From a virus (taxonomy: Duplodnaviria; Heunggongvirae; Uroviricota; Caudoviricetes): a stretch of DNA of 5,033 nt. The notes under the pieces are model-generated. The model worked only from the letters and a program-made list of their open reading frames with translations, did no database searches and was not told the origin of the DNA. Location of the stretch: IMG/VR virus record IMGVR_UViG_2706794662_000015; one strand, given 5' to 3'. Positions 1-5,033 of the stretch are shown here, piece after piece. The number at the start of each line of letters is the position of its first letter. Positions within the stretch are counted from its first letter, which is position 1. A program made the translations under genes and the position numbers.

Positions 1-61
1 GAACCGTTCTGACAGCTTCGGCTTTGAACTCTTTAGAGTAACGTTGGGTTTTTCTGCTCAT
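1..61 (-). CDS. IS3-family transposase OrfA, N-terminal 20 codons (5' partial in window; gene continues past position 1)
   Basis: ATG at 61..59 (minus), AGGAG RBS 6 nt upstream, translation MSRKTQRYSKEFKAEAVRTV. Not in the ORF track because it runs off the window edge. Confidence 0.6.
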   Translation of the reverse strand, partial: MSRKTQRYSKEFKAEAVRTV

Positions 62-125
62 TATTAGCTCCTTCTGATGCCATTCTATTTCAGGAAGGAG
101 TGTCCGTTAAACTCAGGCTACCTCA
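1..125 (-). mobile_element. Left end of an IS3-family insertion sequence (partial; continues beyond window start). Terminus inferred at about 125, reading TGAGGTAGCCTGAGTTTAACGGACAC... on the minus strand
   Basis: Minus-strand translation from ATG at 61 gives MSRKTQRYSKEFKAEAVRTV, the characteristic N-terminus of IS3-family OrfA proteins. A strong RBS (AGGAG, plus 67..71) precedes it. About 64 nt upstream the sequence starts TGA and has GGACAC near position 21-26, the same layout I recall for the IS3 left inverted repeat. The exact terminus (125 versus 127) is uncertain. Confidence 0.6.
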
Positions 126-377
126 CAATAGCCTTACATCATCTGCCAGTCTGGTTTCTCTTTTTGCCACAGAGAGCATCCAGTCAAACGGCTCCACAAC
201 CGCACCGCAGATTTTACAGCGGACCTGACGCTCTTTTTCGTCAACCCGTACAGAGGCGTGATGGCAATATGGTCTTTCCGATGGCTCATAAAGAAAATTA
301 ACCTGATTACGAGGGTCATCCTCTTTTACCGGAAATAAAACGATATTGCTTAACTCATCTTCTGGTTTTATTTCCAT
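123..377 (-). CDS. Small hypothetical prophage protein (84 aa) with a C-H-H...C-x2-C motif, possibly zinc binding; 3' end may be truncated by the IS
   Basis: ORF track 123..434; I prefer the internal ATG at 377 (MEIKPEDELS...) because it has a strong RBS (AAAGGAGAGGAG, plus 378..390 region) and the longer start directly abuts the upstream stop. Motif YCHHASVRVDEKERQVRCKICG. The stop TGA (123..125) coincides with the inferred IS terminal TGA. Confidence 0.5.
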   Translation of the reverse strand: MEIKPEDELSNIVLFPVKEDDPRNQVNFLYEPSERPYCHHASVRVDEKERQVRCKICGAVVEPFDWMLSVAKRETRLADDVRLL

Positions 378-434
378 GCTCCTCTCCTTTGATGCGAATG
401 CCAGCGGTAATTGAAGCCTGATAGCTAATTTCAT

Positions 435-857
435 TCACAGTATCGCCTCCTGAAAATTACCCTGATAGAAAGCCAGTACACGCTGCATAGCTTCGCTCTT
501 CCGGCACTCGCGACAGATTATATTCAGGCGCCTGTCGTAGCGGCGTATTTCTCCGTCAGGTAATGACCAGATAAGGTCCGGATCAACAACAACCGGTTTC
601 CTCACCTTTACTCTCGAGAGTTTTTTGCGGGCGCTTTGCCAGTCCTTGCGAGCCTGTTCAGACGGGAATAAGCCGTAGCCAGAATTATATACATCACCAC
701 TTGCGACCAGTTCTATGCATAAGCGACCGACAGACGCACGACTGATACCTGTTTCATCTGACAACTGCCGAATCGTGACCCGACCGTCCTGATGCACGAG
801 TTCCACAATTCGCGTCTTCAGTTCTTCCCGCTGTTCGGGAGTAAAAGGTTTCGCCAT
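435..857 (-). CDS. Hypothetical prophage protein (140 aa) with a predicted winged-helix/HTH segment (TIRQLSDETGISRASVGRL)
   Basis: Intact ORF with strong RBS (AGGAGG, 4 nt spacer, ATG at 857), 14 nt downstream of the DnaC-like stop, same strand, so a distal operon member. Function not recognised from sequence. Confidence 0.6.
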   Translation of the reverse strand: MAKPFTPEQREELKTRIVELVHQDGRVTIRQLSDETGISRASVGRLCIELVASGDVYNSGYGLFPSEQARKDWQSARKKLSRVKVRKPVVVDPDLIWSLPDGEIRRYDRRLNIICRECRKSEAMQRVLAFYQGNFQEAIL

Positions 858-871
858 AAATCCTCCTGAAA

Positions 872-1567
872 CTACTTAACAACCCTCGAATGGCTAACAT
901 TCGGACGCCAGCTCTCCCAGTTAAAATTCACCCAGCGCCCGCCGTTCATGACCATGCGATCCATCACCCGCTCGCCGAGCAATGTTTTCATCACCTCATA
1001 GTTCAGGTTTGTCAGCATCCCCACGCTGCGCATCGACGCTGTCCGGCGATCAACAATCTGGTGCAGCACCACCTGCTCGTTTTTCGTCTCGCGCTGAATG
1101 CCAATTTCATCAAGAACCAGCAGATCCACTTCGCACAGCTCCCGCAAAAATTTTTCGCCTGACTGCCCGTCGTCATAGCTGGCGTGCAGGGCGCTCATAA
1201 CATCAGCCACGGTAACCACAATCACTGTCTGACCGTCTTTCAGCAGGCGATTCCCGATAGCTGCCGCTAAGTGATTCTTCCCGGTACCAGGTTTTCCGCT
1301 GAACGCAAAATTTGTACACCCGGTCATCAGTTCATCGGCGATGGATTTCGCCTGGCTTAACGCGTATCGCTGGCCGTCGTTCTGCACCTGGTAATTCGCA
1401 AACGAGCATTTACGGTGCAACGGCTGGATGCCTGAGCGATTCAGAATTTTTTCCACCCGCAACTGGCGATTCAGGCGGTTGATCTCCTCGCTACGTTTCT
1501 GGCCTTCAGCAAGTTGCCACTCGCGCCACTCCGCTACCGTTCTGAATGGGGCGGTTACATGTGGCGG
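872..1567 (-). CDS. ydaV: DnaC-like AAA+ helicase loader, C-terminal 231 codons (YdaV-type prophage replication protein); 5' part cut off by the assembly gap
   Basis: Translation has Walker A (FSGKPGTGKNHLAAAIGN), Walker B (DLLVLDEIG) and a C-terminal MLTNLNYEVMKTLLGERVMDRM segment closely resembling E. coli DnaC as I remember it. Stop TGA at 872..874. The frame is continuous with the N-terminal fragment once the duplicated overlap is collapsed. Symbol assigned from family, synteny and reconstructed length (248 aa), not from a verified sequence match. Confidence 0.75.
   Translation of the reverse strand, partial: PPHVTAPFRTVAEWREWQLAEGQKRSEEINRLNRQLRVEKILNRSGIQPLHRKCSFANYQVQNDGQRYALSQAKSIADELMTGCTNFAFSGKPGTGKNHLAAAIGNRLLKDGQTVIVVTVADVMSALHASYDDGQSGEKFLRELCEVDLLVLDEIGIQRETKNEQVVLHQIVDRRTASMRSVGMLTNLNYEVMKTLLGERVMDRMVMNGGRWVNFNWESWRPNVSHSRVVK
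1363..1567. repeat. Left copy of an approx 205-bp diverged direct duplication flanking the assembly gap (about 94% identical to 1818..2022)
   Basis: Manual alignment of 1363..1567 to 1818..2022 shows about 13 mismatches, mostly synonymous in the DnaC-like reading frame. Confidence 0.85.
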
Positions 1568-1817
1568 NNNNNNNNNNNNNNNNNNNNNNNNNNNNNNNNN
1601 NNNNNNNNNNNNNNNNNNNNNNNNNNNNNNNNNNNNNNNNNNNNNNNNNNNNNNNNNNNNNNNNNNNNNNNNNNNNNNNNNNNNNNNNNNNNNNNNNNNN
1701 NNNNNNNNNNNNNNNNNNNNNNNNNNNNNNNNNNNNNNNNNNNNNNNNNNNNNNNNNNNNNNNNNNNNNNNNNNNNNNNNNNNNNNNNNNNNNNNNNNNN
1801 NNNNNNNNNNNNNNNNN
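1568..1817. other. Assembly/scaffold gap (250 N)
   Basis: Uninterrupted run of n from 1568 to 1817. The length is not a multiple of 3, so ORFs read across it are artefactual. Confidence 0.97.
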
Positions 1818-2022
1818 CATGTCGCTGACCGTCGTTCTGCGCCCGGTAATTCGCAAACGAACACTTCCGGTGCAACGGCTGGATGCCGGAGCGGTTCAGG
1901 ATTTTTTCCACCCGCAACTGACGATTCAGGCGGTTGATCTCCTCGCAACGTTTCTGGCCTTCAGCAAGTTGCCACTCGCGCCACTCCGCAACCGTTCTGA
2001 ATGGGGCGGTTACATGTGGTGG
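1818..2022. repeat. Right copy of the approx 205-bp diverged direct duplication flanking the gap
   Basis: See 1363..1567. The same codons (…PPHVTAPFRTVAEWREWQLAEGQKR…) are encoded on both sides with a few substitutions (S/C, QV/RA, Y/H). Confidence 0.85.
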
Positions 2023-2073
2023 GGTCAGTCTGCGGATACGCTCCAGAACGCCTCCTGTCGCAATATTTTTCAT
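1818..2073 (-). CDS. ydaV: DnaC-like helicase loader, N-terminal 85 codons (MKNIATGGVLERIRRLTPPHVTAPFRTVAEWREWQ...), truncated at the gap
   Basis: ATG at 2073..2071 lies 6 nt after the initiator stop (2080..2082), preceded by AGGGGG. Collapsing the overlap with 872..1567 gives a 747-nt, 248-codon gene, the length I recall for Rac YdaV. Confidence 0.7.
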
Positions 2074-2079
2074 GGTCTG

Positions 2080-3228
2080 TTACCCCCTGAAGCCTGGCGG
2101 GATCGCACTGTCCGGCAACGAGACGGTGTTAACCTGTCGGAGCAACGTCTCAGGCCGAACACCTTTCGGCGCGAACAGACCCTGGTATTCATTGGCGATG
2201 CTGTGTCGAATCACCTGCTCAGGTGTAAAACCCTGCTGACGGAATTTTTCCAGTTCCCGTATCGCCCCGTTAGCGCCCTGCTCCGTTCGAATCGGTTTTC
2301 GCAATGCCTGCCTGAACTGGACCCACTCATGCCAGAGTGTTTCTGGCAACCAGTCGGGCAGATCAACTGACAACGGGTCAAATTTTTTCTGGCGAACAGC
2401 CCCACCGATAACCAGAATTCCCTGCTCGGTGTGCCTTGCGATATCACTGCGCCGCAAGACACATATCCCGGTTTCAACAGCACCGATTTTGAGCAGTGAT
2501 TTCTGTCGCGGAGAATTTCGGTCAAGCTCGCTCCCACACCGGACACCGTTCCTGTCAGTCACGACGATATCAATCCGCCCTCCGCAACCGTCACCACGCT
2601 CTGGCACCGGATACTCACGACAGACATCCAGGCCAGCAGCCTGCAACGCAACCACCGCAGAATTACAAAATTCCGCTGCAGTACCGCCAGATAATCTCCC
2701 CTCAAGCACTCCAGCCACAAAATCCCGAAACTCCCTTCCGGAAGGGAAGGGTTTGGGATGGGTTAGATCTGTTTTTAGATCTTTATCTGTATCTTTATTA
2801 GTTGCCTTTGTGTTGGCATCATGTTCGAACATCACTCCAACATCTGTTTGAACACCTGTTAAATTTCTCTCTTGTTTTGTTTGAACATCTGCTTCCTTTC
2901 TGCTTCTTCTGGCCTGAACAGATGCTTTTCCTGCGGCTGATTTTTTGGTTAATTTTTCTCTGACAGATGCCAGATCTTCCTCAATCCGAAGATGCATCCA
3001 TTCGTCGCCGTTATCACAAAAAAACTCCCGCAAGGATGGTTCAACATCAACCCATCGCTCGTTAGTCAGACGGGCAATTTTTGCCAACCTGTTTTTGGGT
3101 ATTGGCTTTCCTGTTTGCCAGTAATTGAACATCAGCAACAAATACGCGCCGTGCTCCTCTGCTGACAAATGCATGGTGTCAGCCAGGTAATCAGCTATGT
3201 ACAGTTGCATGTATGGTAATGCGGCCAT
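2080..3228 (-). CDS. Phage replication initiator/replisome organiser: DUF1376-like N-terminal domain, charged linker encoding ori-like repeats, central domain of unknown function, DnaT-like C-terminal domain (YdaU/lambda-O functional analogue)
   Basis: ORF track 2080..3279 (399 aa). I place the start at ATG 3228 (MAALPYMQLYIADYLADT...), which fits the usual N-terminus of this family; the upstream 17 codons are hydrophobic and lack a convincing RBS. The C-terminus ...NTVSLPDSAIPPGFRG closely resembles the C-terminus of E. coli primosomal protein DnaT as I recall it. It sits directly upstream of, and near-coupled to, the DnaC-like gene. Confidence 0.75.
   Translation of the reverse strand: MAALPYMQLYIADYLADTMHLSAEEHGAYLLLMFNYWQTGKPIPKNRLAKIARLTNERWVDVEPSLREFFCDNGDEWMHLRIEEDLASVREKLTKKSAAGKASVQARRSRKEADVQTKQERNLTGVQTDVGVMFEHDANTKATNKDTDKDLKTDLTHPKPFPSGREFRDFVAGVLEGRLSGGTAAEFCNSAVVALQAAGLDVCREYPVPERGDGCGGRIDIVVTDRNGVRCGSELDRNSPRQKSLLKIGAVETGICVLRRSDIARHTEQGILVIGGAVRQKKFDPLSVDLPDWLPETLWHEWVQFRQALRKPIRTEQGANGAIRELEKFRQQGFTPEQVIRHSIANEYQGLFAPKGVRPETLLRQVNTVSLPDSAIPPGFRG
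2761..2900. repeat. Putative replication origin inside the initiator gene: AT-rich tract with two AGATCT and three 6-bp ATCTKT repeats (2764..2796), then three copies of palindromic TGTTYGAACAYC (2821..2833, 2846..2857, 2878..2889)
   Basis: Read directly from the sequence. The segment is visibly lower in GC than the flanking coding sequence and encodes a charged, low-complexity linker (residues about 128-177). In lambdoid phages the origin iterons lie inside the O gene. Confidence 0.5.
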
Positions 3229-3291
3229 AATTGCCCCGTATGATGCTGCCCGGTTGCTTAGAATAAGCACAAACAGCATGGAAACTTTTGC

Positions 3292-3714
3292 TTAATGAAC
3301 AATGACAGAATCGTCGGAAGACCCGCCGCCGCTGAAATGCGCTTTCCGGTAAACGGCCTGGACTGCATCATCATGCGCATCAATTGCCGTACTCAACGCT
3401 TCCTGCGCCGCCAGTAATGCACGGCGTTCCAGGGTATCGAAGATGCAGAGTCGGTGACGCAGCTCGCGCGGAAGAATTGCCAGAACCGCAGGGATCAGTT
3501 TCTGAATTTTTTCCCTTTGCGCTTTCGTTTCACCTTTCAACCAACGGTGATAGATATTCTGCTGATTGTTCCAGTCCTTGCCTGGTACAAGGGGCAATTC
3601 GCCGCCCCCCTGGCGCAGATATTCTTCAGTAATTGCGTTAGCGACCCACGCCTGCCCTTTTTCGGCTGCCAGGGCTAACAACACTGATTCGATGTGCTCA
3701 TGCCTGATTTTCAT
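3292..3714 (-). CDS. ydaT: cII-like / YdaT-like prophage protein (140 aa)
   Basis: Intact ORF whose ATG (3714..3712) overlaps the upstream stop in an ATGA junction (3711..3714), indicating translational coupling. Position (after the cro-like gene, before the replication genes) and length (140 aa) match Rac YdaT. The symbol rests on synteny and length, not on a verified alignment. Confidence 0.6.
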   Translation of the reverse strand: MKIRHEHIESVLLALAAEKGQAWVANAITEEYLRQGGGELPLVPGKDWNNQQNIYHRWLKGETKAQREKIQKLIPAVLAILPRELRHRLCIFDTLERRALLAAQEALSTAIDAHDDAVQAVYRKAHFSGGGSSDDSVIVH

Positions 3715-3953
3715 GAATCAACCGCTCCTATGCTGTTTTCGCTATGCTTACCGTCTGGGGGGAATACATCGTCAAGTCCACAATGAGCGCCAAGCCGATT
3801 AAGGGTAGAAACAATTTTTCTGCACTCCTCTAGTCCAGGGGTACGAAAATTTGCTTCGTAATTTGCCAGTCGGCTTTGTATCCACCCTAACTGAACAGCA
3901 AGTTGTCTTTGAGACAGCCCAAGCTGTTTTCGATATGTTGAAATTTTGTTCAT
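3711..3953 (-). CDS. Cro-like HTH_XRE DNA-binding protein (80 aa), YdaS-like
   Basis: ATG at 3953 with GGAGG RBS 7 nt upstream. HTH signature QLGLSQRQLAVQLGWIQSRLANYEA. Divergently transcribed from the repressor gene. Confidence 0.75.
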   Translation of the reverse strand: MNKISTYRKQLGLSQRQLAVQLGWIQSRLANYEANFRTPGLEECRKIVSTLNRLGAHCGLDDVFPPDGKHSENSIGAVDS

Positions 3954-4049
3954 TGAAAACCTCCGATGACAATTTTAAACACACCTTGTGTTATATAGCC
4001 AAGCTGTTTTGTGTTTTATGTAAATCACGATTCGTGATACAAGGATGCA
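3954..4049. promoter_or_regulatory. Divergent promoter/operator region between the cro-like and cI-like genes. Candidate operators: AACACA-cct-TGTGTT (3978..3992) and ATCACGA-t-TCGTGAT (4024..4038). Candidate leftward promoter: -35 at 3997..4002 and -10 at 3974..3979 on the minus strand, 17-bp spacer containing the first palindrome
   Basis: 96-bp AT-rich spacer between divergent HTH genes containing two perfect inverted repeats. The promoter hexamers are weak matches, so their assignment is tentative. Confidence 0.45.
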
Positions 4050-4469
4050 ATGGAAAAAGAAAACGAAAAAATTGCCGCTAGTAGGCTCAATGACAAAATT
4101 GCAATGCGTCTTAAAGAGCGCAGGCAGAAGCTTGGTTTATCTCAAGGAAAACTTGCTGAAATCTGCGGATGGACGCAATCGCGTATAGGTAACTATGAGG
4201 CGGGCAGCAGAAATGTTGGAGTACATGACGCTGTCGTATTGGGAAAGGCACTTGGCATATCTCCTCCTGAGCTCCTCTTTGGAGAACAGGAATCTTCTGA
4301 ATTGTGGTTAAATGAATCCCAACGAAAACTTCTTGAGTTGTTTAACCAGCTACCGGGCTCAGAACAACAACGAATGATTGAGCTATTTGAAGTCCGGCTA
4401 AAAGAAATCGATGAGTATGTAGAAAAATATTTGAGAGGCAGGATTAAAGATAATCCCCCACCGGAATAA
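4050..4469 (+). CDS. cI-like prophage repressor, HTH_XRE family (139 aa), RacR/DicA-like; no LexA-type (S24) autocleavage domain
   Basis: ATG at 4050 with AAGGA RBS (4041..4045). HTH QKLGLSQGKLAEICGWTQSRIGNYEAG is closely related to the cro-like protein's HTH. The C-terminal half is helical-looking (LLELFNQLPGSEQQRMIELFEVRLKEIDEYVEKYL) and lacks the Ala-Gly/Ser/Lys pattern of S24 peptidases. Confidence 0.75.
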   Translation: MEKENEKIAASRLNDKIAMRLKERRQKLGLSQGKLAEICGWTQSRIGNYEAGSRNVGVHDAVVLGKALGISPPELLFGEQESSELWLNESQRKLLELFNQLPGSEQQRMIELFEVRLKEIDEYVEKYLRGRIKDNPPPE

Positions 4470-4499
4470 TGATCTTGCTATCACAGTAATATGCCAATC

Positions 4500-4523
4500 A
4501 GCCCGCTATCAGCGGGCTTTTTT
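4500..4523 (+). terminator. Rho-independent terminator after the repressor gene
   Basis: Stem AGCCCGCT (4500..4507), loop ATC, stem AGCGGGCT (4511..4518), then a T-run (4519..4523), 31 nt after the repressor stop. Confidence 0.7.
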
Positions 4524-4565
4524 GTAGCATCATCATATGACACTCACCATAAAACACATTGCGTG

Positions 4566-4594
4566 TTGACACAAGAAAACAAATTGTGTTTAAT
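4566..4594 (+). promoter_or_regulatory. Near-consensus sigma70 promoter (pL-like, rightward): TTGACA (4566..4571), 17-bp spacer, TTTAAT (4589..4594)
   Basis: Perfect -35, 17-bp spacing, 5/6 match at -10. Inverted repeat AACAC-N5-GTGTT (4553..4567) overlaps the -35 and shares half-sites with the 3978..3992 palindrome. Confidence 0.45.
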
Positions 4595-4774
4595 AAGCAT
4601 ATCCAAACAACGCCCCACCAGAGAACGGCAGGACAATACCTCGAGTTATCCAGTCACTGAACAGGGCTAAGTAGCCAGCCTGAGGCATACGAACATGACG
4701 GCAGTTGTTGATTGATACAAAGCGCAGTAGATAAAACGTTCCGCCACCCGGCGTTAAGGGGAAATGGGGTCAAC

Positions 4775-4930
4775 ATGAATACTATCGATCTTGGCAACAA
4801 CGAATCTCTGGTATGTGGCGTGTTTCCCAATCAAGACGGCACATTCACCGCCATGACGTATACCAAAAGCAAAACGTTTAAAACCGAAGCTGGCGCACGT
4901 CGTTGGTTGGGAAGACATTCAGGTGAGTAA
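4775..4930 (+). CDS. Small hypothetical prophage protein (51 aa; MNTIDLGNNESLVCGVFPNQDGTFTAMTYTKSKTFKTEAGARRWLGRHSGE), possibly a YdaF-like small protein
   Basis: ORF track 4712..4930 uses a TTG start; I prefer ATG 4775 with a GGGG motif 5 nt upstream. Position (beyond the repressor, same strand) and length match the small ydaF-type genes next to racR in Rac, but I do not recognise the sequence with certainty. Confidence 0.45.
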   Translation: MNTIDLGNNESLVCGVFPNQDGTFTAMTYTKSKTFKTEAGARRWLGRHSGE

Positions 4931-5033
4931 AATGAACGAGACAGAATTAAAACACGTTATCGCTCTACTCCTAAATAGCTGCGCGGAATAGTAGATCACT
5001 TTGAGGGAACTTAGCCCGGATTGTGCGATCTGA

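Follow-up and report, generated by a model that had tools for sequence, protein, structure and literature searches.

A split and duplicated DnaC-like gene in a Shigella sonnei draft record as the probable product of a false join between two Rac-like prophages

The stretch of DNA analysed here (the window, 5,033 bp) is the whole of the draft record CWST01000195.1 from assembly GCA_001254515.1. In it, a gene for a DnaC-like protein is interrupted by a run of Ns, and the sequences on the two sides of this run encode the same part of the protein. Such an arrangement could represent a gene that has been split and partially duplicated in a prophage, or it could have been created when the sequence was assembled. 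The comparisons described below favor the second reading, to which we assign a probability of about 85%: the apparent split and duplication are an artefact that arose when contigs belonging to separate Rac-like prophages of one S. sonnei genome were linked through a 250-N gap.

The run of Ns is the only one in the window and spans exactly 250 positions, 1568..1817, which confirms the gap that the sequence-only reading of this DNA had placed within the DnaC-like gene. The independently fetched NCBI record CWST01000195.1 (GCA_001254515.1) contains the same 250-N run, and the idea that the Ns are a mask added later to the data was therefore rejected. The two flanks of this scaffold gap, positions 1363..1567 (overlap copy A) and 1818..2022 (overlap copy B), are each 205 bp in length and are read from the minus strand. 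Aligned in a single register, they need no gaps and differ at 15 of 205 positions (92.7% identity), so that the initial estimate of about 94% was slightly high; the best local BLAST alignment between them covers 201 bases at 93.5% identity (E = 7e-86). That they encode the same stretch of protein, as had been proposed, is borne out by their minus-strand translations, both of which correspond to residues 18-85 of the 248-aa protein YdaV. The differences between them are mostly synonymous, again as first described: 10 of the 14 differing codons are synonymous, and the other four are non-synonymous (S43C, Q77R, V78A, and Y85H).

The window contains two incomplete pieces of the gene. To the left of the gap, the ydaV-A fragment (872..1567, minus strand) comprises codons 18-248 and the stop codon, and to the right, the ydaV-B fragment (1818..2073, minus strand) comprises codons 1-85 and one additional base. 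Joining 2073..2023 to 1567..872 yields a clean gene of 747 bp, with 248 codons and a stop. The earlier proposal that collapsing the overlap gives a clean 248-codon gene is thus correct, but the join that it used, 2073..2022, counts one base twice and produces 748 bases. Two ORFs cross the N-run, 872..1948 (358 aa) and 1555..2073 (172 aa), and neither is a gene. Since 250 is not divisible by 3, the 358-aa ORF leaves the ydaV frame to the right of the gap, where its N-terminal 44 aa (1818..1948) are out of frame; its earlier designation as an artefact is upheld.

Judged from its family scores, the gene is predicted to encode the helicase loader YdaV, a Rac-prophage paralogue of DnaC, and not DnaC itself. 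The 248-aa product of the collapsed gene does not differ from A-type YdaV in finished genomes. This protein scores 510.4 bits against NCBIfam model NF009043 (cutoff 389) and 71.4 bits against Pfam IstB_IS21 (PF01695; cutoff 24.1), and its phrog match is phrog_50, “DnaC-like helicase loader”. The DnaC equivalog model NF005931 aligns with it from end to end (residues 7-242) and gives 306.1 bits, below the cutoff of 357. A score above the cutoff for NF009043 together with one below the cutoff for the DnaC model points to the Rac-prophage paralogue YdaV. Matches to IstB_IS21 and NF009043 are assigned to the fragment 872..1567, and the Walker A (GKPGTGKN) and Walker B (LLVLDEIG) motifs are readable in the translations of both alleles. 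In the window and in the finished chromosome of S. sonnei 53G alike, 6 bp separate the end of an upstream ydaU-type gene from the ydaV start, and the RefSeq annotation of the matching genes is ydaV.

The origins of the two sides of the gap were traced by looking up YdaU (399 aa) and the DUF977 protein (140 aa) of the window by exact protein sequence. The finished chromosome of S. sonnei 53G (HE616528.1; PMC10673971) contains two matching loci, designated A and B. Window positions 126..1567 match the A locus, at ~0.78 Mb, at 100% with no mismatch, and positions 1818..5033 match the B locus, at ~1.95 Mb, at 100% with no mismatch, including the junction with IS630. Each locus contains a complete ydaV of 248 codons. 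ydaV-A is found at 778,068-778,814 on the plus strand and ydaV-B at 1,954,876-1,955,622 on the minus strand, such that 1.18 Mb separates the two genes, which point in opposite directions. Between the alleles, 108 of 747 nucleotides and 29 amino acids are different. The ydaV-A fragment of the window is 100% identical to 53G ydaV-A, and the ydaV-B fragment is 100% identical to 53G ydaV-B. Within the overlap, copy A is 100% identical to loci L001 and L029 (the 53G A locus) and 93.5% identical to L002 and L015, and copy B is 100% identical to L002, L003, and L015 (the 53G B locus) and 93.5% identical to L001 and L029.

The complete genome of Escherichia coli FDAARGOS_944 has the same arrangement, with two loci 715 kb apart that match the left contig at 99.9% and the right contig at 99.5%; the cross-matches reach just 88.8% or are patchy at 94-96%. 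In every one of the finished chromosomes shown, the 399-aa YdaU lies in a B-type neighborhood and the A-type DUF977 gene lies beside an A-type ydaV. The sequence-only reading had suggested that the contig ends came from two related prophages and were scaffolded without being merged, and that the left and right halves of the record might stem from different prophage copies. Both suggestions agree with these data, as the flanks are distinct ydaV alleles that lie at separate loci in 53G and the halves belong to different copies in each finished chromosome inspected. A 261-kb plasmid of FDAARGOS_944 carries ipaH7.8 amid IS630, IS1, IS91, and ISSfl7 elements (NZ_CP065614.1, 83,887-88,950). These plasmid features suggest that the closest relative labelled as E. 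coli is enteroinvasive and Shigella-like.

The A and B loci of 53G are not divergent throughout. They share an exact repeat of 265 bp, equivalent to window positions 715..979, that runs from the 3′ end of ydaV into the 5′ part of the DUF977 gene and lies within the left contig. A second, near-exact repeat consists of exact segments of 100 and 131 bp separated by one mismatch. It covers the ydaV-ydaU junction and the 3′ end of ydaU, lies within the right contig at window positions 2079..2310, and corresponds to positions 1624-1855 in the numbering of the left contig. The core between these repeats is 644 bp in length, contains the divergent ydaV, and is ~85% identical between the two loci. Three points are shown directly by these alignments: each half of the window corresponds to its own locus, finished genomes contain both alleles in full, and repeats surround the divergent core.

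A false join would account for the contents of the window as follows. Contig L (1..1567) would derive from Rac-like prophage A and would carry the end of an IS600 element, an 84-aa ORF, the DUF977 gene, and codons 18-248 of ydaV-A. The terminal part of IS600 occupies 1..125 on the minus strand, with the left end of the scaffold inside this IS600 copy; window positions 1..127 are 100% identical to positions 11750..11876 of the IS600 copy in L003, and the match to the 53G A locus begins at 126. The adjacent phage ORF (123..377, minus strand; phrog_1621) is 84 aa in length here through the IS600 insertion and 118 aa in 53G. When this 84-aa product was looked up by exact sequence, the window itself was retrieved, as the full record CWST01000195.1. 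The DUF977/Ren-like gene of prophage A (435..857, minus strand; PF06163, 116.5 bits; phrog_142) has an exact copy in the 53G A locus. The IS600 terminus lies at ~125, and the insertion is absent from the matching locus of S. sonnei 53G; the junction between IS600 and the prophage is absent from the genome contig collection. The same 84-aa product is found beside IS3-family transposases in unrelated prophage contexts.

Contig R (1818..5033) would derive from Rac-like prophage B and would carry codons 1-85 of ydaV-B followed by ydaU, ydaT, cro, cI, a DUF1391 gene, and the end of an IS630 element. The ydaU-type replication initiator gene (2080..3279, minus strand) is an intact ORF of 399 aa with matches to Pfam DUF1376 (87.6 bits) and to phrog_6451, a primosomal protein, and has an exact copy in the 53G B locus. 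The ydaT-family gene (3292..3714; PF06254) and the gene for a Cro-like helix-turn-helix regulator (3711..3953; PF01381) are also on the minus strand, and the gene for a cI-like helix-turn-helix repressor (4050..4469; PF01381) is divergently transcribed from the plus strand. It is followed on the plus strand by the DUF1391 gene (4775..4930), which has a gene call and a Pfam match in CWST01000195.1 at 104..259, and by the left end of IS630 (~4974..5033), which matches DNA just upstream of the IS630 transposase genes and inside which the scaffold ends on the right. The IS630 junction beside the DUF1391 gene is the same in S. sonnei 53G and is missing from E. coli FDAARGOS_944 and VL40. Together, the predicted genes of the window, from DUF977 to DUF1391, correspond to a standard early region of Rac-like lambdoid type.

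The YdaU protein is itself a mosaic, in which residues 22-104 form a primosomal-type N-terminal part (DUF1376) and residues 296-386 form an O-like C-terminal part. The sole match of the intervening residues 189-293 is phrog_1347, a family of unknown function, and a search of the 399-aa protein against NCBIfam gave no match. PGAP annotates E. coli copies of ydaU that are 99.5-99.8% identical as two pseudogene fragments, a call that looks like a mis-flagging of the inserted middle module.

With a length of 5 kb, both ends inside multi-copy insertion sequences, and an internal N-run, the record looks like a small scaffold of a repeat-limited short-read draft. Under the false-join reading, the window would be one such scaffold, built of two contigs from a fragmented S. 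sonnei assembly, and the scaffolder would have linked contigs L and R and written 250 N between them. In gene coordinates the two contig ends would share 205 bp, yet they would have stayed unmerged, since ends that carry different alleles cannot be merged. In the cell, there would be neither a duplication nor a split gene. We infer that read pairs falling in the 265-bp and 100 + 131-bp repeats, which are ambiguous between the two prophages, produced a link between the right side of B and the left side of A, and that allele-specific gap filling from either side then produced the overlapping, divergent ends.

The Velvet, SSPACE, and GapFiller pipeline of the Sanger Institute contains greedy steps that may cause false joins, writes its joins as runs of N, and produced 299 S. 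sonnei assemblies with a mean of 405 contigs (PMC5320598). Entries in the supplementary table of that paper include S. sonnei under the neighboring prefixes CWWN, CWWR, and CWWQ (PMC5320598), and CWST01 was likely built with the same pipeline. Sister draft records have gaps of 1, 11, and 17 N in the same region. In one of these records, L021 (FUDH01000158.1), a single N at position 4215 links a complete B unit (ydaU, ydaV-B, and DUF977) to an A-type unit that contains ydaT, ydaV-A, DUF977, QueH, and further genes. L021 is a second, different cross-link between prophages A and B.

Some features of the gap fit a false join less well. A plain overlap between contigs should give a negative or minimal gap estimate, and the value of +250 N counts against it. 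Neither contig end, 1567 or 1818, lies at a boundary of an A/B repeat. Both lie in allele-specific sequence, and the longest exact run common to the two copies within the overlap is 42 bp; an explanation in which the contigs end at repeat boundaries was rejected for these reasons. At least seven independent Logan run assemblies (L035-L041) contain contigs that end at left-contig position 1569, 2 nt past the end at 1567 in the window. These contigs encode the exact truncated product of 231 aa and keep repeat overhangs at their other ends. The recurrence of this end indicates a branch in the assembly graph near 1569 in some strains. A third sequence sharing the right-hand continuation of prophage A was sought among the fetched loci and 46 IMG/VR loci, the latter chosen by carrying an A-specific 34-mer, and none of these diverges at 1569.

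Among the alternatives to an artefactual join, the one that survives best holds that the scaffold link is physical. The duplication would still be an artefact, and the strain would contain a hybrid prophage in which the right-hand portion of B is connected to the left-hand portion of A by a single ydaV. Homologous recombination between the inverted prophages A and B would generate such a hybrid together with a chromosomal inversion of ~1.18 Mb, and reads of the reciprocal hybrid would have been used to extend one of the contigs at its end, most likely contig R at 1818..2078. Read pairs joining the contigs colinearly were indeed detected by the scaffolder, and with the ydaV genes of 53G in mutually inverted orientation, recombination between them would give viable hybrids.

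A contig with this kind of junction is also known. In L022 (AATWRL010000165.1), which contains no N, the sequence is A-type up to left-contig position 1724 and B-type from 1856, placing the crossover inside the 131-bp exact repeat, equivalent to window positions 2180..2310. In this contig, which belongs to another assembly, an A-type ydaV with the genes downstream of it continues without a gap into a B-type ydaU with the genes upstream of that; the contig is either chimeric or derived from a prophage that recombined naturally. As it allows that an adjacency of A on the left and B on the right is possible in nature, L022 counts against a false join. However, both contigs of the window are colinear with 53G at 100% across the shared repeats, as a correct assembly of a 53G-like genome predicts, and a hybrid needs a mis-walk through the 232-bp repeat. 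The hybrid is also absent from the finished chromosomes retrieved through the exact YdaU or DUF977 proteins. Because the two contigs track 53G exactly across the shared repeats, a hybrid prophage is considered unlikely. The inverted Rac-like prophages of 53G, with their exact repeats of ~100-265 bp, could serve as the substrate of an inversion of ~1.18 Mb in the chromosome.

It is more doubtful still that both diverged ydaV segments reside on one molecule, whether through a partial duplication or through a hybrid junction formed by recombination between the inverted prophages with its inversion of ~1.18 Mb. Very improbable, too, is a mixed or contaminated sample, in which alleles from two strains sequenced together would likewise be placed at two contig ends as versions of one segment. 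A single S. sonnei 53G chromosome carries the two alleles, each 100% identical to its counterpart in the window, along with the lineage-specific junction to IS630, and FDAARGOS_944 also has both in one genome; a mixture is unnecessary because one finished genome contains the two alleles. The genuine partial tandem duplication that had been offered as the alternative (codons 1-85 of ydaV-B, ~250 bp, and codons 18-248 of ydaV-A on one molecule) is backed solely by the colinear orientation and positive gap estimate of the scaffold and is barely credible, as a recent duplication predicts near-identical copies and these are 7.3% apart, each copy is 100% identical to a separate, pre-existing paralogue in finished genomes, and the 455-bp period, not being a multiple of 3, would break the reading frame. 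A junction spanning the gap, with anchors 235-265 bp apart, was also not found in public collections of genome, viral, and metagenome contigs. Among the looked-up loci (L005-L041), copies A and B lie ~455 bp apart only in the source record CWST01000195.1, and the sole other locus with both alleles is L021, in which they are ~2.5 kb apart across the 1-N gap.

If the join is false, as we consider most probable, the feature is an artefact that connects known, ordinary Rac-like replication modules of S. sonnei and holds nothing biologically new. The 358-aa and 172-aa ORFs across the N-run, and calls of a “split” or “duplicated” DnaC-like gene, should not be counted as biology, and the left and right halves of the record should not be handled as a single prophage. 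More generally, diverged paralogous prophage modules that are bracketed by exact repeats can give rise to chimeric scaffolds in IS-rich Shigella drafts. Were the scaffold link true, it would denote a prophage-mediated inversion in S. sonnei, an event of a known type and of modest interest.

The locus can be compared with several known systems. The A and B loci resemble the products of mosaic recombination among lambdoid prophages in that they interleave exact segments of ~100-265 bp with sequence that is 85% identical or unrelated, and alternative mosaics are seen in L022 and L019. The apparent junction in the window, however, is an N-run and gives no evidence of a recombination event. The host helicase loader DnaC is similar to the predicted protein in fold family and length, although YdaV scores below the DnaC equivalog cutoff. 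The closest likeness at the gene level is to the YdaV encoded by Rac-type lambdoid prophages in E. coli and Shigella, with which the gene agrees in length, in family scores, and in having ydaU upstream and DUF977 downstream. There is no gene-level difference from this known YdaV; the window contains a part of each of two alleles and the full gene of neither. As for the join, although the gap size of +250 and the end points of the contigs are not accounted for by false joins of the SSPACE/GapFiller type (Page et al. 2016, PMC5320598), the window shares with them a small, IS-limited scaffold in which contigs are joined by Ns, and the join likewise falls at a two-copy, diverged gene flanked by near-exact repeats.
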